Shown here one piece after another: positions 10,819-39,324 of a stretch of DNA of 64,000 nucleotides. Each line of letters begins with the position of its first letter. Position 1 is the stretch's first letter. The notes under the pieces were generated by a model. That model saw nothing but the letters and a program-made list of their open reading frames with translations, was not told where the DNA came from and ran no database searches. This DNA comes from an uncultured Gemmatimonadales bacterium. GTDB taxonomy: Bacteria > Gemmatimonadota > Gemmatimonadetes > Gemmatimonadales > GWC2-71-9. The DNA is taken from contig CAWJMT010000037.1 of NCBI GenBank assembly GCA_963844035.1, positions 128,001-192,000 on the forward strand, given 5' to 3'. The translations under genes and the position numbers were made by a program.

Positions 10819-12441
10819 GGCGCCGTGGCTGGGATGCCGGCGGGGTAGCCCTCACCCTGCTGCTCGTGTGGCTGGTCGCATACCCGATCGCCATCGTCGC
10901 GGGAGAAGCCGCCAACGCCCCGGCGGTGCGCGACTTCGTCACCCGCCCCGGTGAATGGCGCGCGTTGTGGGCAAGTCTCTGGATCTCGGTGGCGAGTGTC
11001 GTCCTCGCCGCCGCGGCCGGGGTGCCGCTCGCGTTTCTGTTCGAAGGATTCGAGTTCCCGGGGCGGCGCGTGCTTGGCGCCCTGGTGGCGCTGCCGGCGG
11101 TCCTGCCGCCGCTGGTGGGTGTGATCGCGTTTCTGTTTCTCTACGGCGAGTCGGGGTTCGCGGCGCGGGCCGTACAGGGACTGCTGGGTCTCACCACGCG
11201 CTCCCTGGCACCTCGAGGGCGCCGGCGCGATCCTGCTCGTCCACGCGTACTCCATGTACGCCTACTTCTACCTGCTCACCCGGGCGGGTCTCGCCAAACT
11301 CGATGCGTCGATGCACGAAGCGGCTCAGGCGCTGGGCGCGGGTCGCTGGTCGATCTTGCGGCGCGTGACACTGCCCCTGCTCCGGCCCTCGCTGGCGGGA
11401 GCGGCGCTGCTCACGTTCATGACGGCGCTCGGCTCCTTCAGTGCGCCGTACGTGTTCGGGGGCGGGTTCCGCGTGATGCCCACGCAGATCGTCGCGTCGC
11501 GACTGAATGGAAACGGAGCGCTCGCGATGGTGGAGACCGTGGCGCTGGCGCTGGTGGCGCTCGCGGTGCTGTTGCTGCTCCGCCGGACCGAAGGGGACGA
11601 CGTGCTGGTCGCGCTGGGGAAGGGGACAGCACCCAGGCGGCGCCGGTTGCGCACCGCCGGCGCACGCGCGCTCGCGGCCGCCGCCGGATGGGCGCTGGCG
11701 CTGGTGCTGCTGCTTCCTCATCTGACGTTGCTGCTCGTCTCACTCGTTCCCTACGCCACCTGGACGACGCAGGCCCTGCCGCCGGTCTTGAGCCTCGTGA
11801 ACTACCAACGGCTCCTCGGGGAGTCCGAGCGGCTGCGGCCGCTCATCAACTCGTTGTGGATGGCGGGGGCAAGCACGGCGGGCGCGCTCGTGCTGGCGCT
11901 CGCGGCGGGGTGGCTCGTGGTCCGGCGGCGCGTCGCGCTGCGCCGCGTCATTGAAGGACTCCTCGCCCTGCCGTGGGCGCTCCCCGGCACCGTGTTCGCG
12001 ATCGCGCTCGCCACCACCTTCGGTGTTTCGCGGCCGCTGGCACTTCGCGGGGTGCTCGTGGGGACGGCCGTCATCCTGCCGCTGGCGTACCTGGTGCGCA
12101 ACCTCCCGATCGCCGGGCGGGCTATCCTCGCCGGGTACCGCCAACTCGATCCCGCGCTGGAAGAGGCGGCGGCGAGCCTCGGCGCGGGTGGCTGGGCCAC
12201 GCTGCGACGCGTGACCGTGCCGCTGCTCGGGCCGGCGCTCGCGGCCGGGGCGAGCCTCGCGTTCGTCACGGCGCTCGGTGACTTCGTCACGTCGATCGTG
12301 CTGTACACGTACGACACGCGCCCCATCGCGATGGAGATTCTCTCGAGCCTGCGCCAGAACGAGCTGGGGATCGCTGCCGCATTCGGTGTCGTGTTGATGG
12401 TTGCGAGCGCCGCGGTGCTCGGGATCGGAGCGCGCCGGTGA
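10815..12441 (+). CDS. ABC transporter permease, two-module FbpB type (frameshift near 11200)
   Basis: Two EAA motifs (EAAQALGA, EEAAASLGA) across ORFs 10815..11954 and 11254..12441. Confidence 0.9.
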
Positions 12442-13680
12442 AGGTCAATCCCGACCTGAAGCGCCTCGTGGTGCTGATCGCGGTCTGCTTTGTGGACATG
12501 ATCGGCCTGCTGATGATCGCGCCGCTGATCACCTTCTACGCGCTGCGGCTCGGGGGAACGCCCAGCTCCGTGGGTCCGTTGTTCAGCGCGTTCGCCGTGG
12601 CGCAGCTGCTCGCATCGCCCATTTGGGGGCGGGTGTCGGACCGATATGGGCGCCGTCCCGTGCTGCTCAGCGGGCTGTTCGCGTCGGCGATCGCCTATCT
12701 GATCTTCGGGTTCGCCGGCTCGCTCTGGCTGCTGTTCGTGTGCCGCTTTGTCCAGGGGTTCGGCGGCGGGACCACCGGCGTCGCCCAGGCATACGTCGCG
12801 GACACAATGGCGCCCGGCCAGCGGGCCAAGGCTCTCGGTTGGCTGTCCGCGGCCACCAGCCTGGGGGTCAGCATCGGGGCGGTGCTGGGATCGGTGACGC
12901 ACAAGGTGTGGGGACCGCACGGGCCGGGCCTCGCCGCCGCGGCGCTGGTGCTGGTGAACATGGCCATTCGCGTGGCGCTGGCTTCCGGAGTCGAGGGTCT
13001 ACACGCCATCAAAGCCGGCGGCCGGGGGCGCGGGCCAGCCCTCCGGCTCGTTCCAGGTCGTGGTGGGCAACGTGACCCGACCACTCTGGCAGGTGATCCG
13101 CCACCCCTTCAGCCCGGTTTCGGAGGTCATCTGGGTCTACGGGTTCGGGATGCTGGCGCTGAACGCGCTGATCGCCGTCATGTCACTGTACCTCATGCAG
13201 CGCTTCAATCTGAACGCCGACAACGTCGGCCCGGTTTACTTTGTGTTCAGCGCGGTGGGGGTTGCGATGCGGATTCACCCGGTCGGTTGGATCAACGAGC
13301 GTCTGGGCGAGGTCCGCACCATGCGCCTCGGGGCTGTGCTGCTCGGGATCGGGTTGCTGCTGATGCCGTTCCCCGCGACGCTGTGGGGATTCATGGCCTG
13401 CCTGGTCCTCGCGCCGATCGGCACGGCGCTGCTGTTCCCGGCGAGCACGGCGTTGGTCAGTCACCGGACGGATCCCAACCAGTACGGTGTGCAGATGGGG
13501 GCACAGCAGACGCTCCGCGGCCTGATGGCGATCGTGGGTCCGATCGGCGCGACGGTGGCGTTCCAGCACCTGGGGCCCGGCGCGCCGTTCTTCTTGTCCG
13601 CGGGGGTGGTTGCGCTTGCCGCCCTGGTCGCGTGGCAGGTGCGCGACGATCGGGCGGCGAAAACACCGGCGCTTCCCTGA
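12438..13680 (+). CDS. MFS transporter, TetA/DHA1-like (frameshifted near 12965-13060)
   Basis: WGRVSDRYGRRPVLL motif A, AQAYVAD; second half in ORF 13060..13680. Confidence 0.9.
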
Positions 13681-13734
13681 CGCCGCGCCTGCGAGTGGGT
13701 ACACGTTCTCGTCACATCGGATTGCGAGGTCAGG

Positions 13735-14127
13735 ATGGTTGACAAGCTCACCGTCGAGCAGATGCAGAAGATCGAAAAGATCGAAGAGTTTCAGAAGATC
13801 ATGAACCACACGCACCACCTCGTGCAGGAGCTGGCGGCGAATCGCGCCGCTCCCGCGAAGATGCTTGCGGCGATCTGCGAGGGGATCGCGCGGGACATGA
13901 AGCAGATGCGGCAACGCGCCCTCACCGCCAACATTGGGACCATTGCCGACGTCGCGGGCGCGCTGGGCGTGATGGCGGCGCGTAGCGGGGGCCTGAGCCT
14001 GAAGATCCGCGGTCTCGAGGACGGCGTGAACAGCCTGCGGATACAGCTCGAGCATGCCCTCAAGATGGCCACCACCATCGAGAAGAAGCCTCCCGAAGCG
14101 AAAAAGCCTCCGTCACAACCGTCCTAG
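13735..14127 (+). CDS. Hypothetical all-helical protein
   Basis: GAGG upstream, typical codon usage, amphipathic helical sequence; no recognised motif. Confidence 0.75.
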   Translation: MVDKLTVEQMQKIEKIEEFQKIMNHTHHLVQELAANRAAPAKMLAAICEGIARDMKQMRQRALTANIGTIADVAGALGVMAARSGGLSLKIRGLEDGVNSLRIQLEHALKMATTIEKKPPEAKKPPSQPS

Positions 14128-16865: not shown

Positions 16866-19800
16866 CTAGAACCGGGCTCGCCAGAATGCTGCCGCCGTCG
16901 GGAACAACTTCTCGGTGAGTGTGGCCGAGAGGGTGACGAACACCCCGTGCCCGCCGCGCACCGAGAAATCGGGATCGGTCAGGTCGCCGAAACGATACCC
17001 GGTCGCGATCTCGAGGCCGGTGACAGGCCGCAGGGCAAGGGTGGGCGACGCATCCCACCGTGTGGCACCGCTCGATCGCTCGATCAGCAACCGGCCGTCA
17101 CCGCGTACGCTCATCCAGGGGCTCAGGGTGACGTTCAGGCGGCTGCCCACGTAGTCCGCCCAGGCGACGAGGGCCTGGGGTGCCCCGTCCGGGTACACGC
17201 CCTGGGTCTCGGTGCGGCGCATCGCGTAGCGGGTGCCGACCTCGAGCTGCGGAGCCGGCGTCCAAATCATCTCGGCCGCCGCGATCGCCCGTTGCTCGAC
17301 TCCCTGGGAAACGAGCACGCCGCCGCCGATCGGGTTGCGGGCATCGGTCCACTGGAACTTCGCGAGCATGTTGAGGCGATCGCTGTGCGCCGGCCGGAAC
17401 GCGAGGCCCCACAGGCTCGACAGCTGGCGGGACAGCGGCGCGCCGGGCAACGCGTTCTGGGAGAACTGTTGCCGGGTGAGCAGGGCAAGCGACGCATCGA
17501 ACGAGACGTCGCCGACCACGGTGGCGAGACGGCTCGACTGCAACAGGCCGTCCTTGTACTCGCCGCGGGCGCTCAGCCGGTACGGCGCGTGCGCGGGCAG
17601 TAACTCCATGCCGGCACCGAACGACCAGTAGTCGTCCTCGGGCTGGAGGAAGGGCAGGGCCCGGACGGGATCGGTGACGGACGCGCTGCCGACACCCATC
17701 CGGCGCTCGAACATCACGTTGACCGCCAGGTCGGACCCCAGCTGCAGCCGGTTGCGCAGACCCACCAGCGCGGCGTTGCCCGCGCCGTTGATGCCGCCGC
17801 TCAACTGGTAGCTGCCCCACGCCTCGGTCCCGTGTCCCACGCCCGCGCGCACGCCGACGCTCGAGATCGAATACCGAGTCTGGCTGTCGGGTCGCGACAC
17901 GAACCGCTGGCCGGCCTCGAGCGCCACGGCCGGAGAAAGGTGATAGGCCCCGCCGACCCCCCAGAAATCGGGCGCGAGCTCCTGGCCGTCGAGGCTCAGG
18001 TGGCGCCGCGCTTCCGTCCAGAGCTGCAGGTGCTGGTCCTTTACCCACTTCGCCTTGAGGTCGGCCGTAGTCGCCTCGCTCAACCCGAGCCCGGTTACCA
18101 AGGCACCCGCTACCTGTTCGTTCGTGACCCCCGCGTCCAGCTGCACGTCGCGCAACAGGGGTTGCACCAGGCTCACGCGGCTGCGCTCGCGCTCGATTCC
18201 CTGCAGCGTGAACTGCTGGCTCGAGTGCTCGGCACGCAGCTCCGTCGCGCCGAGCCTCAGGCCGCTCTTGAGGTTTACTTCGGTGAGCCCGGGCTGCAGC
18301 GCAACGTTGGCCGGGTTCGTGAATTCGCGGTCGATCCGCATGTAGCCCGCCCCGATCGTCCAGGCGCCGTTGAACAGGCGATAGCCTACTCGCGCCAGCG
18401 TTCCGAAGCCGGCGGAGTCGCCGCGCTCTGCGTACGCCACTTCGGCGGACGCGTCGAGTCCACCGAAGCGCACCGCGCGCAGGTCGCCGCCCACCAACCG
18501 GTAGCCGCCCCCCGCCTGGTCGGCGCTCACCGCGGTAAGCCCGATCCGCATCGAATCCAGCCGCACGCCGCCCGCGAGCCGCCGCACGTCCAGCGCCGCC
18601 CGGCCGCCGGCGACGAACCGCTGGTCCCCGCCCGACGCCGCCTCGAAGGTGGCGACGATGAACACCGGATTGCCGCCTCCGTCCGCCGCAGGAATCGGCT
18701 GCTTGAACAGCACCACGCCGCCGCTGTAGTTGATCTCGTAGTCCACGAAGCGGGTCAGCGCCTGCGTGGCCACGGCGCGCTCGGGATTCGCGACGTCGCG
18801 CGTCTCGATGCGCAGATGCTCGGTGCCCGGCAGGATATCGGGGGCAAGCGTGTAGGGACCGGAGACGCCCGCGCCCCGGATCTGCAGCTGCCGCAGCGCC
18901 TGCGCGGTCAGGCTCCCGAAGCCGCTCCACGTCACGGCGCCGGTGCTGACGCGCGCGGCCAGACCCGTCACGGCGCGCCCGTACTGCGCGAGGGTCAGGC
19001 CGCGCGCGAAATCCGCGGTGGCGAGATCGCCGAACGCCGCCCAATCGAAGCCCCGCTCGAGCCGGGCCGAGAGCCAGGTGCCCGACGCCGTGCGGGTCTC
19101 GAGTTGACTCGCGTCCCCGAGGATCGGGTACTCCGACTCCTTCAAGGGGTCCACGCTGCGGCCGAACGCATCCTGTCCGTCGCGCAGCCGTCGAGAGTCG
19201 AGGCCGAGCGTGAGCGACGTCCGCGCGTCGAGCTGCCCGCGCGCGGTGATCGCCCCGTAGGCGTCGGGGCTCGCGCCCACCCCCACGAGCCCCGAGCCGG
19301 TCAGCGTGAGGGGCCGCACGGCGGGGAGGATCTCGAGCGGCAGGGCGATCGTGGCGTCGCCCGACTTGAGTTCGAGCTCCCCGTGCCTGACTTCGCGGCC
19401 GGGCCGCAGGCTGACCATCAGCCAGCCGGAAGAGTCGGACAAGACTTGCGTCCCGACCGAGGACGGGTCCGCATCTCGCCCCATCGGCTCTGCGCCGCCG
19501 GCGCTCACCGTCACGTACGCCGGCTGCACCACCGGCACCCCCCAGGCGTCGAGCACACGCACCTTCGTGCTCGCGACCGTGCGCCCGTCCGCCTGCAGCG
19601 TGAGCGGACCCGCGCTCGCCGCGAATTGGACCGGGAGACCGGTCACGTGGACGGCCACGCTGTCCCAGCGCTCGCCGCCCCAGGAGTTCTTCGCGCGCAC
19701 GCGCAGCAGATGCGGGCCCCGCGCGAGCGGCACCGCGACGAAGTCGTACACGCCGTCGACGCGGACCTGAGCCGAATCGACCGCTGTGGCGCCGTCGTAC

Positions 19801-22800
19801 AGCACCACGGGCGTGCCGGGCTCGCCCTTCACCCCCACGTACACGCGGTCGCTCGCCAGCACCGTCCCGTCGTGCGGGGCGAAGATGTCGATACCCGCGC
19901 CCAGCACGATCCCCGCCTGCTGTCCGCCCTTGGTCGCGACCCGGGTGCGTGCCAGCGGTACCGTCACAGGTTCCCGCGCCGGGCCGTCGCCTGTGGACGC
20001 CGCTCCCGTGGCGCGCCCCGCGCTGTCCGCCGTCGACGCCACTACCCCCGGCCGTCCGGCGGGGAGCGGCTCGCGCGACACTTCCGCCATCTGGCCGGAC
20101 GGCGTGACAAAGTCCGGAGCGATCTGGCGAACCAGCGCAGTCATCCACGACGATGGCACATCGGGGTCCCGGGCTTCGGTCAGCGGGGACGCGCAGCGGC
20201 AAACGGCTCTTGCCGACGCGGAGCGTCGCGGTCGCGGAATCGCTGCCGATGGACGACCACGCGAATATCCGGATCTCACTCCGGGGCCGGCCCACGGGCA
20301 ATGGAATCGCCGTGTTGCCGAGCCACGCGTAGCTGGTGAACTGGGTGTCGCCCACGAACACCAACGCGGAGTCGGCGAGCGGAGAGAACTCCACCATCCC
20401 GTCGAGCGGCATGGGGGCATCTTTCCTCAGCATCACTTCGTAGCGCATCTGCGGCCAAGCCAGCCCACCAACGGACGAACGCGATCTGTGTATCCGGACC
20501 GCCGCGAACTTCATGCTCACCACTTTTGACAGATCCGCCACTGTCAGATCCGCCGCTGGCAGGTCCACCGCCGGCAGGTCCACCGCAGGCGCCGCGACGA
20601 TGGCCGGGGCCTGGCGCAGGCCGCCCACCACCGGCGCTCCGCTCGGGGGGATGCCGAGGTCCACCGGGGGCGTCGTCCCGAGGGTGGCCGGCGCCTGGCG
20701 CAGGCTCTCCGCCACCGGCGCTTCGTTCGGGGCGACGCGGAAATCCACCCGGGGCGTCGTCCATCCGCTGGCCTCGACCGCCTGAATGTCGTCGCTCAAC
20801 ACCCGATAGCCCGGGGGCAGCGTCCGGGGGTCGAGGCGGAGCGCATGGCGACCGGGCCGCAGGTTCGCGAACGAGAACTTGCCGGTCGAGTCGGTGGTGG
20901 CAACCTGGCCGTCCTCGGTCCAGATGTCGATGCCCGCGAGGCCGCTGTCGCCCGCCTGTTGAGTGCCGCGGCCGGCGCGGTCGATCCACACCTTCCCGAT
21001 CGCCGCCCGCGTCTCCATCGGCCAGGCGCGGCGCACCTGCACCCATGCGACCGCTTGGGGCGAGACGACCTGGGCCGCTGCGGCCTGTGCGCCCGCGATC
21101 GCGCGCATCTCGGCCACCAGCCCCGGGGCCGACGCCAGCGCGACGCCGACGTGGAAGCTGCGCGTGGCGCCGGGCGCGAGTGGCGCCACGCTCACGAGCA
21201 CCAGCTGGCTCCCCGCCACCAGGACGGAGTCCGCGCCGAGGGCGGTGCCCTTGGCATAGCTCCCGCCCGCGGGCAGCGTATTCGTTATGCGGATGTCGTC
21301 GATCGGAACGATTCCGGAATTCCGCACAACGAGCGTGTAGGGGATGACCTCGCCCACGCCGACCTCGAGGGCATCGGCGGTGAGATCGAGCGCGACGGCG
21401 GTGCTGGGGGGCCCGATCAGAGCCAACAGCGCCGCCCTGACGGACAGCGCCGAGGCGTTCGTCGCAGCGAGGGCCCCCACGTTGCGGGCCCACACCGTGT
21501 CGCGCACGGCGGCGTTCACCTGAAGCACGACGTCAACAACCCCGCTGTCGCCGGGTGCGAGCGTACCCAGCGCCCAGCTGAGCACCGACCCGGAGGCAGC
21601 CGCCGGGGGCACCGCACTCACGTAGTCGAGGCCGGCCGGCAGCGTGTCGGTCAGGACCGTGTTGGACACGGCCGCGCCGGTCGGCGCGTTGCCATAGTGC
21701 AGCACGTAGTGCACCTGCTGCCCCGCCAGGGCCTGGGTCGCACCGACGAGCTGTTTCGAAAGCGTCAGGAGCGGCACCAGGACGCTGGTCTGGACGGCGT
21801 TGGTGTACGTCGTGTCGGTTATGCCGCCCGACGCGTAGACCGTGTGACCGCGGTTCGTCACGGTGCGCGCGGGACCCGGGTCCACCGCCACCTGGAACGT
21901 CACCGCGCCCAGGGCCCCAGCGGCCACGCCGCCCAGGTCCACGACCACGACGCCCGAGCCCGCGGGAACGATCGCGCCGGCGTCGTCGCCCGTGGCGTCG
22001 GTGAGGGGGGCGCCGTTCCACCGGAGGGTGCCGGGCACGTAGGTCGTGCCTGCTGGGATCGTATCGGCGAGCTGGCCGCTCGTGGTCGTCCCGCTGCCCG
22101 ACGCGGCGTAGGCAATCGTGTAGCTCAGCACATCACCCGCCACCGCGGTGGCCCGGTCCACTTGCTTGGTGAGGGCCAGGGTGACCGGCGTGACGGGCAC
22201 GTCCAGCCGGTCCCGCACCGTGTCACTCACGGCGGGATTGAACCAGCTCATCGCGCTCACCGCAACGGTGTCGGTCGCGCCCAGCACCCCGGCGGCGCCG
22301 GGGATCGCGACCTGCGCCAGCAGATACGCGATGCCGGCATACCCCAGCGCGACCGGCCCGGCAAGCGCCGGGTCGGCGGGGTCGAGCAGGCCGTCGGCGT
22401 TCACGTCGCGATACAGCGTCACGGGCCATCCGTGACTCGACACGCCGGCGACGGTGAACGAATCCGGACCGTTCCCGACGTTCGTGAGAGTGTGCGCGAA
22501 CAGGACCGCGGTGCCGGCGGCCCCACTCGAGACTCGTGGCGGCTCGACGTCCGCCCCCGCGACTTGGCCGACGAGGACGTCGGCCGTGTCGGAATAGGAG
22601 ACGAACCCCGTCCCGCTCGGGGTATCGAACGTGGCGACCGCCCAGGCACGGATCTGCGTTCCCGCGGGGGTGCCCTGAGCGGCGACAGGCGATTACGACA
22701 AACAACCTGAAAGCACAGAGGAGGGCGGCCGTCCGGCCCGCGACCGCTAAGCCGCGCCGGGCGAACCGCCCCCTCTGCACTCCGCAGGTGCCGAACTGCA

Positions 22801-22801
22801 T
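16866..22801 (-). CDS. Giant exported protein: N-terminal GTPAGT strand, Ig-like domain, three DUF11-type domains, SdrD-B-like domain, linker, C-terminal outer-membrane beta-barrel-like region (frameshifts near 22695 and 20185)
   Basis: AQGTPAGTQIRAWAVATF; LALTKQVDRATAVAGDVLSYTI..DTIPAGTTYV; GKVWID...GLAGIDIWTEDG...TDSTGKFSF; YPILGDAS; long alternating-strand C-terminus ending in F. Confidence 0.85.
20530..20589 (-). repeat. 15-bp coding tandem repeat x4 (PAVDL PAVDL PAADL TVADL)
   Basis: cagatccgccactgt cagatccgccgctgg caggtccaccgccgg caggtccaccgcagg on + strand. Confidence 0.85.
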
Positions 22802-22816
22802 CGAGACGCTCGGCCC

Positions 22817-24042
22817 CTAGTTGATGCTGACGCGGAGTTCGAACGTGGCGCTACCGGCCGCGGCCAGGACACCACCGGTGCCCGTGTAGTCCGCCGTCAC
22901 GTTCTGCCCGACCACCCCAACACTCCAGCCGGTGGACGAGCTGGTGGATACGTACGTCACCTGCGCCGGCAACGCATCGGTCACCTGCACGCTCGAAGCG
23001 GAGGTGGAGCCGCCGTTGGTCACTGTGATCCGGTACCGGATGACCTGCCCGGGGACCACCGTGCCCGAAACCGGCGTGACCCCGTCATCGAGGTACGCGG
23101 CCTTGGCGAGCGTGAGGTTCGGCTTGATGACCGTCAGGTCCATGAAGCCCTGATTGGTCGTCGCGGGCTGTCCGACCGACGCGGCCGAGCAGGTTCAACG
23201 TGTCCGTCGATCCGCCGGCCACGTTCGCCACGTTGTAGATGACCGCGACCGCCTGCGACGCGCCGGCTGCCAGCGTGAAGCGCGCACTGTCACCGGCAAC
23301 GCCGTTCACCGACACGATGGTGATCACCGCGGACCCCGGGCTCGACCCCAGCAGATCGAAGTCGTCGCTCCCGTTGCCGTTGTTCTGCGCGGTGAAGCGT
23401 GAACGAATAGTTGTTGCCCGGGAGCCTCTGGACGTTCTGGCCCCCGTCCGGCGTGACTGCGACTGCGTGCGTCTGCGACGGGGTGATACTGCTCGCGGCG
23501 TTGCCCGACGTGGCCGGCGTGCGCCGTGACGTGGCCGTCAGGGTGTAGACGGTGTTCACGCCGCCCTTATTGCTCGCCACGTCATAGACAACCTTGACCG
23601 TGATCGAGCCGCCTTGCGCGATTGACGCACCCGCGAGCGCCGCGTTCAGCGCCGCGAGGCTGGCGTACGTGGTGCCGCTGTAGCGGTACCCCGTCACCGA
23701 AATCACGCCGGCGACGGAGATGTTCTGGGAGATCGTGACGCTGTCGTTGCCGTTGCCCGCGTTTGCCACCGTGAAGTCCAGCGTGTCGGCGGTGCTCGGC
23801 GACGCGGGGGTCGGGCTGGGTGTGTTAGCGGTCACCGCGACGCCGGCCGTGAAGCCGACCGTCACCGAAACCGATCCCGTGACCGGGGTGTAGGCGTTGT
23901 TGTTGGCGTCGGTATAGGTCGCGGTCGCCGTGTTCGTGATGACCGTGCCCTCCGGCGTCTGCGCCACGACTCGCGCGGTGACGGCGATGAGTGCCACCAC
24001 AGCGACGGCGAGGCTTTGGGTCCAGCGCAAGTACTTGAACAT
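22817..24042 (-). CDS. Secreted DUF11-type protein, candidate major fibre subunit (frameshifts near 23395 and 23180)
   Basis: AAGGAG RBS; signal peptide then QTPEGTVITNTATATY; two N.GNG.D Ig-like repeats; C-terminal PNLTLAK...PGQVIRYRITVTN...VTDALP...ATFELRVSIN*. Confidence 0.85.
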
Positions 24043-24083
24043 CTGTCATCTCTCCTTGAGGTTGATTTCCGTTACCCGGACGC

Positions 24084-24590
24084 CTACTTCGCCTCGCCGG
24101 GTCCTGCATTCAGTTGCGCGCGAAACTCCGCGGTCACCTGTGCTCCCGGCGCCACGGACTCGAGTACCGTCCAGCGCACGTGCGTGTACAGCTCGCGCGG
24201 CGCCGGCTTCGTCACCTTGTGACCCTTCTCTTCCGCTTCGATGGTCGGCTCCGCGCTGTACGTCTTGCCGCCGTCGATCGAGAACGCGATGCGGGTCGGC
24301 TGGCGCGCGGCTGCCGAGCCAAGCACGTAGACCAGGCCCTGCGGGATCGGATCTTCGAACTGCACGTTCTTGACGGGCCCCTGCGTGAGGTTCGTGAAGA
24401 CGAGGGTGTAGCGGATCTCGTCTCCGGGGCGGGCGAGCGTCGAGTTTTTCCGCCCGCTCGCGGCTGCAGCAGTCACGTTGTGCGCCGTGATCACCAGCGC
24501 CTTGGGGCTCTGCGCCTGCGCGACAGCGACAACGGGCCAGGCCAGCACGGCGGCCAGGGTCGCAACGATCAGCATTCGCATCGTTCTCAT
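24084..24590 (-). CDS. Small secreted single DUF11-type domain protein
   Basis: AAGGAG RBS; signal peptide; ARPGDEIRYTLVFTN..DPIPQGLVYV..FSIDGGKTY..YTHVRW..EFRAQL. Confidence 0.88.
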   Translation of the reverse strand: MRTMRMLIVATLAAVLAWPVVAVAQAQSPKALVITAHNVTAAAASGRKNSTLARPGDEIRYTLVFTNLTQGPVKNVQFEDPIPQGLVYVLGSAAARQPTRIAFSIDGGKTYSAEPTIEAEEKGHKVTKPAPRELYTHVRWTVLESVAPGAQVTAEFRAQLNAGPGEAK

Positions 24591-24671
24591 GTTCGGGCTC
24601 TCCTTTACCTGCGTGTGTATCGAGCGTGTTAGGGTCATCAGTCCTCTGTTGTGCCAGGCGTGCCGCGCCGC

Positions 24672-24812
24672 TCATCCCCTTCGGGTTGGGCGGCGGCTCC
24701 CTCGCCACAGCGGAACACCGCACTCGCATCGAGGGCAAACGACCAACTCACCCAGGACCTGCGGGCGACCGAAGAACGTCAGTTCTGAGCAACTGGGGCA
24801 GCGTCGAACCAT
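24672..24812 (-). CDS. Putative 46-aa zinc-ribbon microprotein
   Basis: MVRRCPSCSELTFFGRPQVLGELVVCPRCECGVPLWRGSRRPTRRG*; two CxxC; AGAGGAG at 24830-24824. Confidence 0.5.
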   Translation of the reverse strand: MVRRCPSCSELTFFGRPQVLGELVVCPRCECGVPLWRGSRRPTRRG

Positions 24813-24844
24813 GTGTCGCAGCACTCCTCTCGAGCACGCGGAAA

Positions 24845-24860
24845 AGCAGGTCCTGTGCCC
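24845..24860 (-). promoter_or_regulatory. Candidate sigma54 -24/-12 promoter for the DUF11 operon
   Basis: Minus strand GGGCACAGGACCTGCT = GG-N10-GC. Confidence 0.6.
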
Positions 24861-24947
24861 CACGTGCCAAACTGCATAAACTAGTTATGTGACAATGAGT
24901 TACGTTACTTCTTGCTGGCGGGGTGGTGCTGCGGAACTGCTGGCGAT

Positions 24948-24963
24948 GTTACCCTGCGGTAAC
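24948..24963. promoter_or_regulatory. Palindrome GTTAC-N6-GTAAC, candidate activator binding site
   Basis: gttac cctgcg gtaac about 90-105 bp upstream of the sigma54 motif; extra GTAAC at 24971-24975. Confidence 0.45.
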
Positions 24964-24996
24964 GCGGTTGGTAACGCCTGGTCTGTGGTTCTGGGC

Positions 24997-27900
24997 TTAC
25001 CTGATTCGCGCGGTGAAGCCGATGGAGCCGGTGTTGTTGGGCGCGGTTTGGCTCAAGCTGCCGGTGAATGTCCAACGGATATTGGTGACCTGTCGATCAT
25101 AGCCCGCTGGCGCACCCCCGGCACCGCTGGTGGGGATGTACGTCCACGTGGTCCCTCCGTTACTCGAGTACGCCACGACCACCGTGAGACCGGTCGAGCC
25201 GAGATTGCTCGTGACAGACCCCACCTTGAAGTCGGAGTTGGTCGATACGGAATCGATGAGGACCAGCGCCTCCGCGGCGCTGCCGCCCGAGTTGGTGAAC
25301 GTCAGCGTGTAGGTGAGATCGGTGCCTGCCGGCACGGTGCCCGATGGGACGACGCTGTGTGCCAGCCCCATGGTCGGTGCCGTGCGGGTCAAGACCACGT
25401 CGTTGCCGGTGCCACCGACGTAGCTGATCTTGAAGGTCAGGTTGCTCAGTGTGACGGTGGATCCTTCCGGCAGTCCGGCGAAAGTCCCCGTTATCGCATC
25501 GCCCCCGTCGTTGGTGATGACGGTGAAGGTCATGCCATCGGTGGTCGCAAAGCCCACCGTGCCGCTCAAGGCGGCGCCACTCACGTTCACGGTCCCCGTC
25601 ACGTTGAGTCGATCGTAGCCGCTGCCCACGGTGGTGCCGTTGAGCTCGACCACGAAACCGGGTGCGCCGCTGCTCCAATTCACGTTACCGCTGTTGAGAA
25701 TGCCCGGGCCCGATCCGGGCGAAACTGTTCCGCCCAGGGCGGTGGAGGTGATCGCCCCTACCGTGCCCGTACCACCCAGCGTGCCCCCGTTCAGGCTCAC
25801 GGCGCTCGAGCCTTGGGAGCCGTTTACGAGCAGCGTCCCCGCACTGACGGTCGTCGTCCCGGTGTAGGTGTTGGCGGCGCTCAGCGTGAGCGTGCCCGCC
25901 CCATCCTTGGTCAGGGTCCCGGTGGTGGTGCCGATCACGCCGCTCACCGTGGTGTTGCCAGCGCCCCCAACCGTCAGGCCGACGCCCGCGCCGCTGATCG
26001 TGTTGGAGACGGTGAGTGTGCCCGCGTCGGAGTTGATGCGCGCCGCGCTCCCCAACGTGATCGCGCCGGACCAGGTGTTGTTGTTGGCCAGGTTGCGCAG
26101 GGCGCCGCCGCCGGCAATCCCGGTCCCGTTCAGGGTGATCGGCTCCGCGATCAGCAGCCCGCTGCCATCCACCTGGAGCGCCGCCCCGGCGGTTACGGTC
26201 GTCGCTCCGGCGGTCGTCCCCAGGGCCGTGTTGTTCTGAGCGTCGAGCACGCCCGCACTCACCGTCGTCACACCGGTGTAGGTGTTGGCGCCGGAGAGCG
26301 TCAAAGTGCCGGTCCCCGCTTTGGTCAGCGTCACGGTCCCGCTGCCGTTCTGGAGGATCCCGGAGAACAACGTGCTCGTGTTGTTGCCCCCCGCCGTGAG
26401 CGTTACCGCGCCCGCCACACCGCTCGTCACCGTGCCGGCGCCGGCGAGTGAGCCGATCGCGTCGCTGAACCCGTTGAGATCGAACGTGGCTGCTCCGGCC
26501 ACGGTCACGGCGCTGCTCGCGCCCACCGCGTTGGCGATGCCCAGCCTCAGGGCGCCCGCACTGATGGTGGTCGCCCCCGTGTAGGTGTTGGCGGCGCTCA
26601 ACGTGAGCGTGCCTGTCCCATCCTTGGTCAGAGTCCCGGTGGTGGTGCCGATCACGCCGCTCACCGTGGTGTTGCCTGCCCCCCCTACGGTTAACCCCAT
26701 CGTGGCGCCGCCGATGGTGTTGGACAGCGTGAGCGTGCCCGCATCGGAGTTGATGCGCGCCGCACTCCCCAACGTGATCGCGCCCGACCAGGTGTTGTTA
26801 TTGGCCAGGTTGCGCAGGGCACCGCCGCTCGCAATCCCGGTCCCATTGAGGGTGACCGGCTCCGCGATCAACAGCCCGGTGCCATCCACTTGCAGCGCCG
26901 CCCCGCTCGCCACCGTCGTGGCTCCCGCAACTGTTCCCAGGGCCGTGTTGGTCCGGGCGTCGAGCACCCCCGCGCTTACCGTCGTCACCCCGGTGTAGGT
27001 ATTGGCGGCGCTCAGCGTGAGCGTGCCTGCGCCCGCTTTGGTGAGGCCGCCCGCTCCGCTCGTGACACCGCTGAGGGTGAGCGTGCTTGCGGCATCAGTG
27101 ACCGTGATGGTGCGGGTTGCGGCGAAGGCCATCGCCAGGCTGATCGTATTGGATCCAGCGACACTGCCGTCCGTCAGGTTGCCCGCACCAAGCACGATGG
27201 AATTGCCGGCCAGCGTATAGCCCGTGCCGGTGATGGTGATCGAATTGAAGGTCGTCGCGGCCGCCAGACCGTTTGAATTGGAAAGATTCGCCGCGCCGCC
27301 CGGGAAGATGAGATCCTCTCCTCCCACGAGTGGCGTGCCACCCAGGCCCGACCAGTTGCCCCCGTTGACCCAGAGATTGCTCACCGCGCCGGTCCAGGTG
27401 GCGGTCGTGGCTCGAGCGAGAGCCAGGGTCTGCCCGACTCCCACATCGGCGTCGTTCGAGGCGGTCGCCGTCTTCACTCCGGTCGCTCCAGCAACCGGTT
27501 GCACGACGTAGTTCATTTCGAGCGTGATCCCGACGGCATTCGGTACGGCATCCGAAGAGACATCGACCGCCTCCGTCATCCCGCCGGGCGGGGTCCAGGT
27601 TGCAGCCGAGGTGAAACTGTGGGTGGTGACGATCATGTCATAGCTCTTCGTGGTCGTCACACTGGGGGCGGCGTGGGTCAGCGCGCTGGCCGTCACCTGT
27701 CCGTTTTCGATATCGACGGGAGCAGCGGTGTTGACCCCGAAGAAGGTCACGATGCCGCCCGCCGAGCCGGTGGACGTGTTGAAAGTCCAGGTGTAGCTCG
27801 CGGGCTCGCCCGCGGCGGCGACCTTCCGATAGGTCGCCTGCGAGCTGGCGTTGGTCGCCGCCTGGTTCGTGCGGCGAATCAGGGTCCAGCCCGCGGGCGC

Positions 27901-28104
27901 GGTGATCGTCGCCGTATTGGGCCGAACGGCGATGGCGGCGATCATCACGTCGCCGGTCACGGTCCCGGCCGGCTTGTTGACGGTGAGCGAAAGCACCCCG
28001 GTCGTCGCACCCGCCTGGGCGGACGCACGAACGGCCTGAGCAAACACCGGCGCAGGCAGCAGCCAGGCGATCGCGATCACCGCGACCAGAAGCCAGTACC
28101 TCAT
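24997..28104 (-). CDS. Secreted adhesin with autotransporter-associated beta-strand (PATR-like) repeats and C-terminal DUF11-type domain
   Basis: Signal MRYWLLVAVIAIAWLLPAPVFAQ; repeated LTK.G.GTLTLS.ANTYTG.TTVSAG.L; ends AGTDLTYTLTFTNSG...VTNIRWTF...GSIGFTARIR*. Confidence 0.9.
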   Translation of the reverse strand: MRYWLLVAVIAIAWLLPAPVFAQAVRASAQAGATTGVLSLTVNKPAGTVTGDVMIAAIAVRPNTATITAPAGWTLIRRTNQAATNASSQATYRKVAAAGEPASYTWTFNTSTGSAGGIVTFFGVNTAAPVDIENGQVTASALTHAAPSVTTTKSYDMIVTTHSFTSAATWTPPGGMTEAVDVSSDAVPNAVGITLEMNYVVQPVAGATGVKTATASNDADVGVGQTLALARATTATWTGAVSNLWVNGGNWSGLGGTPLVGGEDLIFPGGAANLSNSNGLAAATTFNSITITGTGYTLAGNSIVLGAGNLTDGSVAGSNTISLAMAFAATRTITVTDAASTLTLSGVTSGAGGLTKAGAGTLTLSAANTYTGVTTVSAGVLDARTNTALGTVAGATTVASGAALQVDGTGLLIAEPVTLNGTGIASGGALRNLANNNTWSGAITLGSAARINSDAGTLTLSNTIGGATMGLTVGGAGNTTVSGVIGTTTGTLTKDGTGTLTLSAANTYTGATTISAGALRLGIANAVGASSAVTVAGAATFDLNGFSDAIGSLAGAGTVTSGVAGAVTLTAGGNNTSTLFSGILQNGSGTVTLTKAGTGTLTLSGANTYTGVTTVSAGVLDAQNNTALGTTAGATTVTAGAALQVDGSGLLIAEPITLNGTGIAGGGALRNLANNNTWSGAITLGSAARINSDAGTLTVSNTISGAGVGLTVGGAGNTTVSGVIGTTTGTLTKDGAGTLTLSAANTYTGTTTVSAGTLLVNGSQGSSAVSLNGGTLGGTGTVGAITSTALGGTVSPGSGPGILNSGNVNWSSGAPGFVVELNGTTVGSGYDRLNVTGTVNVSGAALSGTVGFATTDGMTFTVITNDGGDAITGTFAGLPEGSTVTLSNLTFKISYVGGTGNDVVLTRTAPTMGLAHSVVPSGTVPAGTDLTYTLTFTNSGGSAAEALVLIDSVSTNSDFKVGSVTSNLGSTGLTVVVAYSSNGGTTWTYIPTSGAGGAPAGYDRQVTNIRWTFTGSLSQTAPNNTGSIGFTARIR
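25868..27007 (-). repeat. Internal direct duplication of about 420 bp at 717-bp spacing within the adhesin gene
   Basis: About 25868-26290 vs 26585-27007; both encode GGALRNLANNNTWSGAITLGSAARINSDAGTLT...GAGNTTVSGVIGTTTGTLTKDG. Confidence 0.85.
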
Positions 28105-28213: not shown

Positions 28214-28229
28214 CGCAAGGGACGTGCCT
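28214..28229 (-). promoter_or_regulatory. Candidate sigma54 -24/-12 promoter for the adhesin gene
   Basis: Minus strand AGGCACGTCCCTTGCG, near-consensus TGGCACG-N4-TTGC. Confidence 0.8.
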
Positions 28230-28328: not shown

Positions 28329-29732
28329 TCACCCTCCCCCGCCGGCGCTGGGCGTCTCGGCGAGCAGCCCGTGCTTCTTCCGCTTCTCCCACAGGTTCTT
28401 ACGGCTGATACCCAATATCTCAGCCGCCCGCTGGATGTCGCCGCTCGTTTCTTCCAGCGTGTGGCGAATGTATTCCCGTTCCGCTTCGGCCAGGGTGAGT
28501 CCCTTGGGGAGTTGGAAAGTCGTGGCGCGTGGCGGGCCGGCCCCGCCTCCGCCCGCGCGCTGGCCGAGCGGCGGGAGGTCCGAGCGATTCAGGACCGGCC
28601 CTTTACTGAAGATCATCGCACGCTCGATCACGTTGCGCAGCTCGCGGACGTTGCCGGGCCAGCTCCAGGTCTGCAAGGCCGTGAGCGCGGCCGGATCGAT
28701 CGATTCCACCCGCTTCTTGAACTCCAGGCTGAACGTTTCGCGGAAGTGATTCGCCAGGAGGGGGATGTCGGTCTTGATGTCGCGTAAGGGCGGCAGGGTC
28801 ACGCTCGCGACGCCGACCCGGTAGTAAAGGTCGGAGCGAAACGCACCCGTCGCCACAAGCTGCTCCAGGTCCCCGTTCGTGGCCGTTACGAGCCGGAGCG
28901 CCACCTCCAGCTCCTCCGTGCCCCCGAGGCGGCGAACCCGGCGGCTTTCGAGCACGTTCAAGAGCTTGGCCTGAAGCTCGGGGCCGAGCTCCGCGATCTC
29001 GTCCAGGAACAGCGTCCCGCCGTCGGCCACCTCGATGAGTCCGCGCTTCGCCTCACGGGCGTCGGTGAACGCGCCCTTCTGGTAGCCGAACAGCTCCGCC
29101 TCGAGCAGGTTCGCGGGCAAGGCCGAGCAGTTGATCTCGACGAACCGGCCCGCCGAGTGCGGGCTGGAGTAATGAATGGCGCGCGCGACCAGGTTCTTGC
29201 CGGTGCCGCTTTCCCCGAGCAGCAGGACGGTGGGACGCGGGATGGCCGCCATCTGGCGGACGAATTCGCGGACCTGTTCGACCTTGGGATGCAGGCCGAG
29301 GATCGCGCCAACCGAGAACTGCTGCCCGCGGGCCTGTTCAAGCGAGGCCCCCGCCTCGAGGAGCGGTCGTTCCTTGAGCGCCCGCACGAGGAATGTGGTC
29401 AGCTCGTCCACGTTGACGGGCTTTGTGAGGTACTCGGTGGCGCCCGCTTTCAGCGCCTCGACAGCGGTGGCGATGTCGGCGTGCCCCGTGAGGATGAAGA
29501 TGGGGAGATGGGGGTCGACAACGCGCAGGCGGCGGGTCACTTCGACGCCGTCCAAATCCGGCATGACGAGATCGGTGATGACGGCGTCCGCCGGCTGCTC
29601 CGCATGGCGCGCCAGCAGGGCATCGGGCCGCTCGAAGACCGTGCTGCGGAACCGGCCCCCCGGCCCGAGGTTCGCGGCCACGAGCTTGGCGTGCACCACG
29701 TCGTCGTCGAGGATGTAGATTTTGTAGCTCAT
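28329..29732 (-). CDS. Sigma54-dependent response regulator, NtrC/AtoC family (REC-AAA+-HTH)
   Basis: ILDDD, ITDLVMP, GESGTGK, ELFGYQKGAFTDA, GGTLFLDEI, FRSDLYYR, WPGNVRELRN, AAEILGISR. Confidence 0.97.
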   Translation of the reverse strand: MSYKIYILDDDVVHAKLVAANLGPGGRFRSTVFERPDALLARHAEQPADAVITDLVMPDLDGVEVTRRLRVVDPHLPIFILTGHADIATAVEALKAGATEYLTKPVNVDELTTFLVRALKERPLLEAGASLEQARGQQFSVGAILGLHPKVEQVREFVRQMAAIPRPTVLLLGESGTGKNLVARAIHYSSPHSAGRFVEINCSALPANLLEAELFGYQKGAFTDAREAKRGLIEVADGGTLFLDEIAELGPELQAKLLNVLESRRVRRLGGTEELEVALRLVTATNGDLEQLVATGAFRSDLYYRVGVASVTLPPLRDIKTDIPLLANHFRETFSLEFKKRVESIDPAALTALQTWSWPGNVRELRNVIERAMIFSKGPVLNRSDLPPLGQRAGGGGAGPPRATTFQLPKGLTLAEAEREYIRHTLEETSGDIQRAAEILGISRKNLWEKRKKHGLLAETPSAGGGG

Positions 29733-29788
29733 TGGCCGCACCTGTCCCCGCTAATATTGGGGACAGCCCCCCCGCACAGCCAGGACCT

Positions 29789-30160
29789 ATGGCCGCTTCG
29801 TTCCGGGCGTTGATCATCGACGACGACCCCGACCTCTTGAGCTTGATCCGGCGTACGCTCGAGTTCACGGCCGGATGGGACGTGCAGACGGCGCTCTCGG
29901 GCGCCGCCGGGATCGCGCTGGCCCGCGCCGCGCCGCCCGACGTGATCCTGGTGGACGTGATGATGCCCGAGATGGACGGCTACGAGGTGTGCCGCCGGCT
30001 CAAGGCCGACTCCGCGACGGCAGCGGTGCCGGTTGTGTTGCTGACGGCTCGCCGGGAACTGGACGACCGGCTGCTCGCGGGGACGGGCTCGGCGGGTGTC
30101 CTGCTCAAGCCGTTTCAGCCCCAGGACCTCGCGCGCCAGGTCCGCGAGCTGTGCCCATGA
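29789..30160 (+). CDS. Single-domain response regulator
   Basis: LIIDDD, PDVILVDVMMPEMDG, LLTA, LKPF. Confidence 0.93.
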   Translation: MAASFRALIIDDDPDLLSLIRRTLEFTAGWDVQTALSGAAGIALARAAPPDVILVDVMMPEMDGYEVCRRLKADSATAAVPVVLLTARRELDDRLLAGTGSAGVLLKPFQPQDLARQVRELCP

Positions 30161-32850
30161 GCACGCCGGATCCCCTCGCCGAAGTCAGGGCGGAGTTCGC
30201 CGCCGGCCTGAACACGCGGATCGACGCGATGCGCGGGGCTCTCGAGCGGCTGCGCACCGATTTTTCCACCCAGGATGCGGAGCGGCTGTACCGGGCGGCG
30301 CACTCACTCACCGGCACAGCTGGGAGTTTCGGGGCCGAGGCGCTCGGGCACGTCGCGGGGGATCTCGAGTCGCTGGCGCGCGGGTGGCTCGCGCGCGGCC
30401 GCTCCCTCCCGGAGGAATGGCGCGTCGCCGCTGCCGCCATCAGGGAGCTCGACGCGGCCGCGCGCGAATACCGGACCACCGCGGCCCCCGGGGTGCTCCG
30501 CTCGCCGGCCGCCCGCCTGGCCGTCGTGGGCGAGCTCACATCGCTCATCAACGCCGCCGTCGACATGCGCGAGATCTTCCGGGGTGCGATCCTCAAGGTG
30601 CAGCGCGTCCTGGACTTTCGCCGGGCGAGCGTGGTGCTGATCGACGACACCGCCACGCACTATTACGTCCACACTCTGTACGACCGGGACCGCGGCGGGT
30701 TCGTGACCCGTGAAGCGGTGTTTCCCATCGAGCAGGGAATCACCGGGCAGGCGATCCGCTCCGGGCACCCGATCCGCGTGGACGCCCTGCCGGGAACCGA
30801 AGGCATTCTGTTGCAGGAGGGCAAGCACGTCTCGGCGATGATCGTGCCGCTGCACGTCGGCGACCGGGTGATCGGCGCGCTCAATTTCGGGCACGAAGAT
30901 CCGGGGCGCTATTCGGAGGACGATCTCGACTGGGCGGTCGTGCTCGGCCGCCAGATCGAAACCTCGCTCTACTACTCCAAGCTCCTGAGCACCATCGCCG
31001 AGCAGCGCGAGGCCCTGGCGCGGGAGCACGAGGCGGTGCAAAGCCAGCGCAACCGGCTCGAGGCGCTGATCGACGCCAGCGACGCCGCCATCATGCTGGT
31101 CGGGCCCGACCGCCGCATCGCGCACGCCAACGCCGAGATGGCGCAGCTCGTGGGGATTCCCCGGGAAGCGATGCGGGGCGCGAGCGTGGACAGCATCCAC
31201 CGGTTTCTCGCGGGATCCTTCGTCGAGCCGAAGGCGCTGGCCGCTCAGGAGGAGGCTCTGTCGGTCGACGTTTCGCTGCGCGACCGGGTCGAGCTCAAGT
31301 TCCCGCAGCGCGCCGTGTACCAGCGGGTGGTGGCGCCGGTGCGCGAGAGCCTGGGAGCGCTGCTCGGCCACATCGTGCTGTACCGCAACGTCACCCACGA
31401 GGTGGAGGTCGAGCGGGCGAAATCCGAATTCGTGTCGGTGGTGAGCCACGAGCTGCGCACGCCGATGACGTCCGTGAAGACTTCCCTCTCGCTGCTGCTG
31501 GACGGCGCCGGGGGACCGCTGGGAGCCACCGCCAGGGAGCTGCTCGAGATCGCCCACCGCAACGCGGAGCGGCTGATCCGCCTCGTGAACGACCTGCTCG
31601 ACCTGTCGCGCCTCGAGGCGGGGCGGATGGAGTTGCACATCGAGCGAGTCGCGCTGGGCGAGGCGATCAAATCGAGCGTCGACGCCGTCCGCGGGTTCGC
31701 AGACGAGCGGGAGGTTGCGATTGCGCTCGTGCCGCCTCCAGAGCCGATCGCGGTCCAGGGGATGCGCGACCGGGTGGAACAGGTCGTGGTGAACCTGCTC
31801 GCCAACGCCATCAAATTCTCCCGCTCGGGCGGCCAGGTGCGGGTGCGGTGGTGGCGGGACGAGGCGGCGCCGTGGTCGAGGTGGCCGACCAGGGGCCCGG
31901 TATTCCGGCCGACAAGCTGGGCGTGATCTTCGAGCCGTTCCGCCAGCTGGACAGCTCGACCACGCGTGAGCACGGCGGCGCGGGACTGGGACTGGCAATC
32001 AGTCGGGACATCGTCCGCGTGCTCGGTGGGCGGCTGTGGGTGGAGAGCGAGCTGGGCGCGGGGTCGCGGTTCTTCATGCGCCTCGGCCTCGCGCCGGAGC
32101 AGGCGCACGCCGTTGAGCCGGGTCCAGCGCCCGCGGCGGCGGCGCGGTCCACGACCGTGCTTGTCGCACACAGCGATTCCGACTGGCGGCGCTTGGCCAC
32201 GGTGCGTGCGGAAAGCGATGGCTGGCGCGTGCTAGCGGCGGAGACGGGAGCTGCAGCCCTGGCGTGCCTCGAGCGCGAGGCAGTGGACGCTGTAGTGCTG
32301 GCGCTCGAGCTGTCCGACATGCACGGCCTGGAGCTGCTCCAGCAGCTCAACGAGCACCCCAAGTTCTTCGACATCCCCGTCGTTATCGCCGCCGAGGTGG
32401 AAGCCCCGGTCCTGACCAAGGACGGAATGGTGGTGGCAACCACGCCGCACGACGCACTCGACTGTGTGCGTCGTCTGCTGGCGGCTCCGCCCAGGGCTAT
32501 GATACTGCTGGTCGAGGACGACCCGATCCTGCGCAGGGTGCTTGATCGGGTGCTCCGGCGCGCGGGGTACGCCTGCCTCGCGGTCTCCAAGGCTCCCCAG
32601 GCGCTCGAGTTCACCCGCGCACGCACACCGCACGCCATCATCACCGACTACCGGATGCCCGAGATGAACGGCATGACCCTACTGCGCGAAATGCGCAAGA
32701 ACCCCGCCCTGACCGGCGTGCCCGCCTTGATGCTGACGGGCCACGCGAGACCCGAGCTCGAGCGTCAGTTGGCCGAGGTGTCGGCCCGCCTCCTCACCAA
32801 GCCGGTGGACCTCGCAAGCGCTGCTCGCGCTGGTCGCCCAGCTGATCTGA
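30157..32850 (+). CDS. Soluble hybrid histidine kinase Hpt-GAF-PAS-HisKA-HATPase-pseudoREC-REC (frameshifts near 31870 and 32815)
   Basis: RAAHSLTGTAGSFG (Hpt); VSHELRTPMT; NLLANAIKF; D.GPGI; GAGLGLAIS; LLVEDD..ITDYRMP. Confidence 0.9.
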
Positions 32851-32874
32851 CGCACTGCGCGCGTCGTTCTCACG

Positions 32875-33588: not shown

Positions 33589-33604
33589 AGGCACATGCCT
33601 TGCC
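33589..33604 (+). promoter_or_regulatory. Candidate sigma54 -24/-12 promoter for the chaperone-usher-like operon
   Basis: AGGCACATGCCTTGCC = GG-N10-GC, downstream of an AT-rich tract (about 33460-33580). Confidence 0.75.
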
Positions 33605-34210: not shown

Positions 34211-34211
34211 G

Positions 34212-35042: not shown

Positions 35043-35043
35043 C

Positions 35044-35524: not shown

Positions 35525-35533
35525 GGGCGCGGA

Positions 35534-39289: not shown

Positions 39290-39324
39290 GGCTAGACGAT
39301 CAGGCGCACAGACGGCCAGCGGTG

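Follow-up and report, generated by a model that had tools for sequence, protein, structure and literature searches.

Split CLIPPER domains in a four-gene locus of an uncultured Gemmatimonadales bacterium: a probable self-locking pilus with tip, shaft and barrel anchor

The locus described here raises the question of what four neighbouring genes for secreted proteins make together, when two of the proteins end in a domain that stops short of its final strands, one begins with a strand pair that could complete such a domain, and one has both ends. The genes lie on the minus strand of a 64,000-nucleotide stretch of DNA, here called the window (positions 128,001 to 192,000 of contig CAWJMT010000037.1, assembly GCA_963844035.1), from an uncultured Gemmatimonadales bacterium whose genome is 83.7% complete, and the nearest named homologues of the locus proteins are found in Gemmatimonadales. 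Sequence comparison and structure modelling suggest that the proteins are probably subunits with split CLIPPER domains that plug together head to tail, are locked by a Lys–Asn isopeptide bond, and form a surface pilus of a tip, shafts and a barrel anchor; we consider it very likely that a polymer forms, and likely that its shaft joints are covalent. A preliminary description of this DNA had proposed a system of three components, and the tip, the shaft and the barrel anchor are indeed present, but the fourth gene at 24590(24638)-24084 had been overlooked. The order is adhesin (28104-24997), small gene (24590-24084), shaft (24042-22817) and giant gene (22801-16866), each product has a Sec-type signal peptide, and the features are as follows.

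24997..28104, minus strand: tip adhesin, 1035 aa in one open frame, with a signal peptide, an N-terminal domain of about 210 aa without a Pfam family, a PATR passenger and a C-terminal acceptor.
25850..27060, minus strand: PATR (autotransporter passenger) repeats in four stretches, approximate limits (TIGR02601, 139 bits; PF12951).
25000..25377, minus strand: adhesin acceptor, a CLIPPER-type domain minus its last two strands, with His (25359-25357) at the Lys position and the Asp kept.
24084..24638, minus strand: small secreted acceptor-only protein with a signal peptide, probably starting at 24590 and with Ala in place of the Lys (DUF11, 27.4 bits).
22817..24042, minus strand: shaft, about 407 aa, with a signal peptide, a donor hairpin, two complete immunoglobulin-like (Ig) domains and a C-terminal acceptor; one-base breaks at about 23399 and 23180.
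23854..23961, minus strand: shaft donor hairpin, mature residues 1-36, with Asn10 at 23934-23932.
22820..23122, minus strand: shaft acceptor (DUF11, 47.5 bits), with Lys at 23104-23102, Asp at 22978-22976 and a stop codon two strands early.
16866..22801, minus strand: giant anchor/translocator, about 1980 aa, with breaks near 22690 and 20190.
22566..22677, minus strand: anchor donor hairpin, with Ala at the Asn position (22647-22645).
21406..22185, minus strand: two complete CLIPPER domains (22185-21775 and 21774-21406), each carrying Lys, Asp and Asn within a single chain, the first of them split into two genes in several relatives.
20740..21405, minus strand: third CLIPPER-type domain without the triad, and an SdrD_B-like domain, approximate limits.
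19326..19907, minus strand: two Ig-like domains ahead of the barrel.
16869..19310, minus strand: predicted outer-membrane beta-barrel of about 39 long strands, into which a beta domain of about 80 residues (model residues 345-424) is inserted, and with a C-terminal Phe.

The domain that all four proteins share belongs to the family DUF11, since renamed CLIPPER, which is represented by the structure of a fibrillar adhesin from Acinetobacter silvestris (PDB 9IFR; PMC12617251). In that domain, Lys715 on the first strand forms an intramolecular bond with Asn806 on the penultimate strand, beside the catalytic Asp748, and the last strand comprises residues 818–821; the bond is absent from some DUF11 domains (PMC12617251). 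The PF01345 profile (cut-off 24.6 bits) recognises the shaft acceptor with 47.5 bits, the small protein with 27.4 and the giant protein with 75.5, and the C-terminal domain of the adhesin passes only TIGR01451 (25.7 bits, cut-off 24). A continuous domain with Lys, Asp and Asn is found only twice, in the two complete domains inside the anchor, and the shaft, the tip and the small protein all stop before the Asn strand. We modelled the intact shaft of a relative (G004) with AlphaFold2 (110 sequences, mean pLDDT 97, pTM 0.82), and the model consists of an N-terminal two-strand hairpin (strands 7-14 and 27-34), two Ig domains of seven strands each and one further domain at the C-terminus. Residues 277-380 of this model superimpose on 9IFR with a Z score of 9.7 and an rmsd of 1.8 over 90 of 123 residues and have a CnaA-like fold. 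As both chains reach the Lys after about ten residues, the 9IFR chain numbering (18-109) must be offset, and with this offset the final 30 or so residues of 9IFR, including Asn806, would remain unmatched by the shaft acceptor. In the complete internal domains of the window, the Asn strand is penultimate and has one further strand behind it, as in 9IFR, and the acceptors are therefore short of two strands rather than one. The truncated end that had been noted before is thus real, but a single-strand donor is ruled out by the extra strand, and the donor is a hairpin of about 35 residues. Sequence searches of solved structures gave only antibody noise with the shaft and no match with a fused repeat protein, and the profile of the small protein matched 9IFR and GhpA weakly. 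A Foldseek search with the shaft returned generic multi-Ig proteins and no pilin of such a type among the matches listed, which is no proof of a new fold.

The two ends of the shaft are conserved. After removal of 15 of 110 family rows from the alignment, Asn10, Lys286 and Asp328 are jointly kept in 92 of 95 full-length shaft homologues, and the same number of shafts (92/95) end at one common column. In the window itself, the acceptor Lys (23104), the acceptor Asp (22978) and the donor Asn (23934) of the shaft, the donor-like N-terminal segment of the anchor with Ala in place of Asn (22647), and the truncated, donor-less adhesin with His in place of Lys are all as the preliminary description had read them. 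Evidence for the role of the hairpin came from 76 long repeat proteins with 1291 internal acceptor-like domains, which were searched with a profile built from shaft residues 1-36. A match 70-130 residues after the domain start was found for 124 of these domains, compared with 0, 0, 0 and 2 for four control segments, and in the twelve examples that were printed the match stands exactly behind the last acceptor strand. The segment that begins the shaft thus occupies, in continuous proteins, the place at which the acceptor of the shaft is cut off.

The tip and the anchor each have only one of these ends. A donor hairpin was sought in 25 tips of relatives and found in none, and all 25 retain the Asp of the acceptor. 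The Lys is missing from 7/7 tips of the PATR type and present in 16 of 18 others; together with the window, 8/8 PATR tips have lost the reactive Lys, and such tips may be releasable. The passengers that are joined to the acceptor vary and include PATR, LamG, GEVED, SpaA_4 and DUF11 repeats. PATR passengers that end in a CLIPPER acceptor and not in an autotransporter barrel were seen in the window (25000-27060) and in loci L016, L017, L024, L026, L028, L029 and L030. At the other end of the chain, 77 anchor donors have Asn (46), Ser (21), Ala (5), Thr (4) or Asp (1) at the bonding position. The earlier statement that only shaft–shaft joints combine Lys and Asn is accordingly true of the present genome but not of the family, as Lys is kept in 16/25 tips and Asn in 46/77 anchor donors.

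Nature has also cut and joined these proteins at the places that the split-domain arrangement predicts. Among 120 homologues of the giant protein, of which 77 are long forms (a further 3 short and 33 partial sequences were set aside), seven are split, as judged by eye, at a seam within the first CLIPPER domain, and the hairpin of the second gene is then preceded by a newly acquired signal peptide (for example in G023); the same split occurs in 5 of 20 loci found with the shaft as bait. Because a signal peptide has been inserted, the split is not a frameshift artefact. Conversely, in L090 (L090:1193-3268) and P0122 a shaft acceptor is fused in frame to an anchor-type hairpin, that of the first anchor module. 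Splits and fusions alike keep the predicted order of parts. A further division was observed in Thermus HB8 (L077, plasmid pTT27), Deinococcus (L053-L056) and cyanobacteria (L046, L047, L052, L068 and L078), where the anchor arm with its CLIPPER and SdrD_B domains and the barrel are separate genes, and in those phyla a second inter-chain joint would therefore lie behind the SdrD_B domain.

The survey of operon conservation that had been called for showed that the layout recurs widely. With the small protein as bait and 24/64 parts of the collection covered, at least 54 loci were found, in addition to plasmid records; about ten weak loci (L062, L067, L069-L076) are ordinary repeat proteins and were left out of the counts. 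The layout is present in eight phyla, namely Gemmatimonadota, Cyanobacteriota, Deinococcota (Thermus HB8 pTT27 and Deinococcus), Pseudomonadota, Acidobacteriota, Desulfobacterota, Latescibacterota and Bipolaricaulota, and in Thermus thermophilus HB8 the operon on pTT27 comprises TTH_RS10905-10925. Outside Gemmatimonadota, the first-strand Lys is present in 25/25 picked acceptor-ended open reading frames (four of them judged by eye) and the donor Asn in 24, the one exception being a tip. With the shaft as bait, matches are patchy, in 23 of 301 genomes of the phylum and 21 of 125 of the window's family, and in the 20 resulting loci a second donor-bearing gene follows downstream in 18 by score, with one fusion and one case below threshold. 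In some loci (L050, L054, L064 and L065), the shaft is represented by two or three paralogues, not always on the same strand, which are possibly minor subunits or alternative fibres. Cyanobacterial shafts (L046:6995-9679) contain an internal DUF7925 domain, of a family with a predicted intramolecular isopeptide bond, and the L046 operon ends in a beta-helix–OmpA protein.

The small protein that had escaped attention is found directly upstream of the shaft gene in 20/20 full-length shaft loci obtained with the shaft as bait. Its 51 homologues never have Lys at the reactive position (Ala in 41), and the Asp is kept in only 25. A complex model of the small protein with shaft residues 1-162 of the relative G004 reached a score of 0.88, and the best of three controls 0.00; of 157 solved complexes, 116 attain the mark for this score, as do 2 of 215 mismatched pairs. 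The runs share at least 99% of contacts, and the partner pLDDT is at least 90. In the model, the interface is formed by hairpin residues 1-38, residues 8-17 form a strand that pairs with the one bearing the Asp, and the Tyr adjoining the Ala at the Lys position is contacted by both Asn10 and Val31. As the acceptor is always present and yet, without its Lys, never weldable, the small protein is best read as capping or chaperoning donor hairpins reversibly, an assignment that we favour slightly; a role as the default tip appears possible, if doubtful. A search of viral contigs with the small protein gave no relative.

From these elements, the following sequence of events can be proposed. In the periplasm, donor hairpins that are still free would be bound by the small acceptor, which cannot be welded for lack of the Lys and would act as a reversible cap or chaperone. 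At the barrel, an incoming shaft hairpin would complete the acceptor of the preceding subunit, tip first, with the polarity of chaperone–usher assembly. Each completed domain would bury the Lys and Asp of the acceptor together with the Asn of the donor, and by the chemistry known from 9IFR, an inter-chain isopeptide bond would form. The anchor hairpin would fill the last acceptor and end growth, the fibre passing through the pore of about 39 strands. In the present genome, the joints at the tip (His) and at the base (Ala) would be non-covalent and the shaft joints covalent. The donor and acceptor logic of tip, shafts and barrel that was first proposed for this locus is supported by the position of the hairpin in repeats, by splits and fusions at the seam, by conservation in eight phyla and by the complex model.

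In the window, the shaft gene is read in three frames. Intact relatives align across the breaks at about 23398 and 23179. An independent contig of 1298 bases from a close relative (run X1) is one base shorter at each of the positions 23180 and 23399, and another run (X4) at 23180; both runs represent relatives, of another strain than the window genome. The breaks are therefore most likely assembly indels, and a true pseudogenisation of the shaft was rejected because relatives are intact. The alignment of intact relatives also places breaks in the giant gene near 22690 and 20190. Many housekeeping-type genes of the window (10815-13742, 29875-32882 and 35042-38317) are frame-split as well, as in an unpolished long-read assembly.

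Several observations weigh against our interpretation and have to be set beside the evidence above. The structure models were built from relatives or single pieces, the genes being broken in the present assembly. About nine in ten internal domains do not score with the hairpin profile, which is short, and the pLDDT of 96-97 over residues 1-35 of the shaft model would likewise be obtained if the hairpin closed on its own subunit. The complex score supports hairpin binding by the small protein, but the likeness of the pair to a complete CLIPPER domain may explain the pass. Lys is absent from 9/25 tips and Asn from 31/77 anchor donors, and the fused seam of L090 has lost both, as the new C-terminal acceptor of L090 has lost its reactive residues; because of these three cases, joints can work without an isopeptide bond. 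Finally, OmpA domains occur in 23/120 anchor homologues, in G023 between arm and barrel, which suggests that the anchor arm starts in the periplasm, and surface display would then require threading of the fibre through the pore.

The confident hairpin in the shaft monomer model could mean that the same pairing builds only a short tether of tip, one or a few shafts, and anchor, in which spare shafts close on themselves and no long polymer arises; shafts of 700-1130 aa, as found in some phyla, would be stalk enough without polymerising. We regard this as unlikely. Shafts from 335 up to 1130 aa long keep both the donor and the acceptor end, as do two-domain adaptors of about 313 aa, and this is hard to reconcile with ring closure. 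Proteins that have only an acceptor or only a donor need a partner on another chain, and a dedicated, conserved cap suits a subunit that polymerises by itself.

The loss of bonding residues at some joints can also be taken further, to a pilus that is assembled through donor hairpins and held non-covalently throughout, the triad being a relic or too slow in trans. The triad is incomplete at the tip and base of the window, in all PATR-type tips and in the L090 seam, and bond-free DUF11 domains are known (PMC12617251). However, a triad distributed over two chain ends is kept in 92/95 shafts and across phyla, and the small protein has lost the Lys in 51/51 cases; because the triad is kept selectively in shafts and lost in the small protein, we consider it probably functional and a purely non-covalent pilus quite unlikely.

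The barrel bears on the question of where the fibre stands. It was modelled from the last 1013 residues of the giant protein, which form one open frame in the window (90 sequences, pLDDT 81, pTM 0.69), and the model consists of two Ig domains and, counted by hand, about 39 long strands with a beta domain inserted after the eighth. No Pfam or NCBIfam family covers the barrel, which resembles unnamed Atlas clusters; Foldseek matches had a TM score of 0.22 or less with no usher among those listed, which again does not prove a new fold. Superposition on PapC gave a Z score of 11.8 and an rmsd of 6.3 for 312 aligned residues, and porins and SlpA score similarly (Z 11-13). The usher family PF00577 has no match in the genome, at its completeness of 83.7%. 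N-terminal arms of outer-membrane barrels are normally periplasmic, and with the OmpA domains of 23/120 anchors one could picture an envelope scaffold in the periplasm that ties the barrel to the cell wall rather than a surface pilus. This is highly unlikely, given that the tips present varied adhesin-type domains (PATR, LamG, GEVED and SpaA_4) on one acceptor and that the barrel is far larger than a porin.

The surroundings of the locus contain the following candidate regulatory features.

28215..28229, minus strand: sigma-54-type promoter motif upstream of the adhesin, with a similar motif upstream of the adhesin in 3/4 relatives viewed.
24845..24860, minus strand: sigma-54-type promoter motif upstream of the operon of small gene, shaft and anchor.
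28329..29741, minus strand: adjoining sigma-54 activator (receiver, AAA+, HTH), a probable regulator, with a homologue within the fetched stretch in 19/56 related loci.

Of the four sites of the motif in the 64 kb, three lie immediately ahead of the adhesin, the small gene and a second operon of fimbrial appearance. In front of the small gene, it was found in 17/27 loci of Gemmatimonadota, compared with 0/27 on the reverse strand, 2/25 inside the shaft gene and 1/16 in other phyla, with a survey pattern that had been corrected and loosened after the site of the window was seen; the strict consensus gives four matches in the window, with 4.06 expected. The regulator block between the two fimbrial operons (28329-33363) encodes the sigma-54 activator, a frameshifted hybrid Hpt-GAF-PAS histidine kinase with two receivers, and an FHA-domain membrane protein. 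The second operon is divergent (33692-38317 and about 38740-39290, both plus strand), has its own sigma-54-type motif at 33589-33603, and encodes two related secreted pilin-like proteins of 170-180 aa, a PapD-like chaperone candidate (recognised by eye, without a Pfam match), a minor subunit, and a frameshifted usher-like protein with SdrD_B/CarboxypepD domains and no PF00577 match. Three of its genes, including the chaperone-like one, were sought in 56 related loci and found in none, and a dependence of our system on this operon was rejected for that reason. That the split-CLIPPER subunits are cargo of the chaperone–usher-like operon, which lies 5.6 kb away on the other strand, shares the promoter-like motif and flanks the same regulator block, is thus extremely improbable, the more so as the loci of the other phyla examined encode a barrel of their own.

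If the split-domain pilus is real, it would add a pilus class to the diderms, covalent pili having so far been confined to sortase-bearing monoderms, and many DUF11 genes that are now unannotated would gain a role, as would the giant barrel, which belongs to no family and, if the strand count holds, is among the largest single-chain barrels. Taken furthest, the data may point to a new class that is represented in eight or more diderm phyla and uses a split CLIPPER domain as a natural tag-and-catcher, in which the subunits weld themselves without sortase, ATP or a PapD chaperone, a Lys-less decoy chaperones the hairpin, a terminator-fused barrel of 38-40 strands exports the chain, and the loss of Lys or Asn makes chosen joints, as in PATR tips, releasable; to its full extent this is a tentative proposal, slightly less likely than not. 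For engineering, a natural split isopeptide domain that combines orthogonal joints with an unreactive decoy would be of interest too, and SpyTag/SpyCatcher is a comparison.

How, then, does the system relate to those already known? No description of the operon was found in open-licence PMC papers and bioRxiv, with subscription literature outside the search, and guessed old locus tags of the Thermus genes are named in no paper of that search. The earlier view that nothing alike has been characterised holds for the operon but not for its principle, as sortase-free, isopeptide-locked donor-strand polymers have precedents in other folds (BsaA and an archaeal thread). Sortase-assembled pili of monoderms contain CnaA/CnaB domains with Lys–Asn bonds, and their chains are linked by sortase at LPXTG. 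In the present case, the subunits finish with their last beta-strand, neither a hydrophobic tail nor a C-terminal wall-sorting signal being present, and the sortase family PF04203 has no match in the 83.7% complete genome, in a search whose control matched 3/14. Type V pili are made from lipoprotein precursors and use a C-terminal donor strand, whereas here the donor is N-terminal and the signal peptides of the shaft, the tip and the small protein lack a Cys where they are cleaved. N-terminal donors that complete Ig folds are also described for TLP-1 (PMC11494351), the Pam pili of CPR bacteria (PMC13278184) and haloarchaeal tafi, for which a logic of tip, shaft and anchor has been proposed (PMC11821415). 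We rejected all three as a published version of our system, as they belong to different families and the accessible texts describe no isopeptide or giant barrel; the 'DUF11' matches of tafi are DUF1102 (PMC11821415), and F-ENA was checked and rejected as well (PMC12357932).

The closest relative at the level of the domain is the 9IFR adhesin, which has the same family, fold and layout of Lys, Asp and Asn, but there the bond lies within one domain of a long monomeric adhesin (PMC12617251), whereas the domain of our system is interrupted ahead of the final two strands and its halves belong to separate chains. The closest parallel in architecture is the chaperone–usher pilus (type 1 and P), with an N-terminal donor that completes the Ig fold of the neighbour, a donor-less tip, a terminator at the base and a barrel with an inserted domain (PMC13721041). 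Our system differs in its two-strand donor, CnaA-type fold and predicted covalent joints, in the absence of a PapD-type chaperone, for which general family scans gave no match among the locus proteins, and in a terminator that is fused to the barrel, modelled with about 39 strands compared with the 24 of the usher (PMC13721041). Furthermore, the candidate chaperone accepts a donor, whereas the chaperone of chaperone–usher systems lends a strand. The closest parallel in locking is BsaA of Clostridium perfringens, in which exchange and locking occur without sortase, with Asn on the N-terminal donor and Lys and an acid on the acceptor, and mutants lose their oligomers (PMC11580942); the same layout of residues recurs here at the level of sequence and model. 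However, BsaA is a TasA-related, SipW-processed biofilm protein of a monoderm, for which the accessible text gives neither a barrel nor a comparable series of tip, shaft and anchor (PMC11580942), and in our locus general family scans gave no TasA-family match among the proteins, and no peptidase gene lies between the four genes. The archaeal thread Saci_0406 shares the donor-strand filament, an apparent inter-subunit isopeptide bond and a putative cap gene, but the bond connects the N-terminal amine to an Asn of subunit n+2, in another fold and without an outer membrane (PMC9715654). Recognised classes of diderm pili, according to a review of 2026, are chaperone–usher, type IV, conjugative and curli (PMC13721041). 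On the features tested, our sequence and model data suggest a system that would work like a chaperone–usher pilus with BsaA-like locking, and that appears to stand outside the chaperone–usher, sortase, TasA and type V families.

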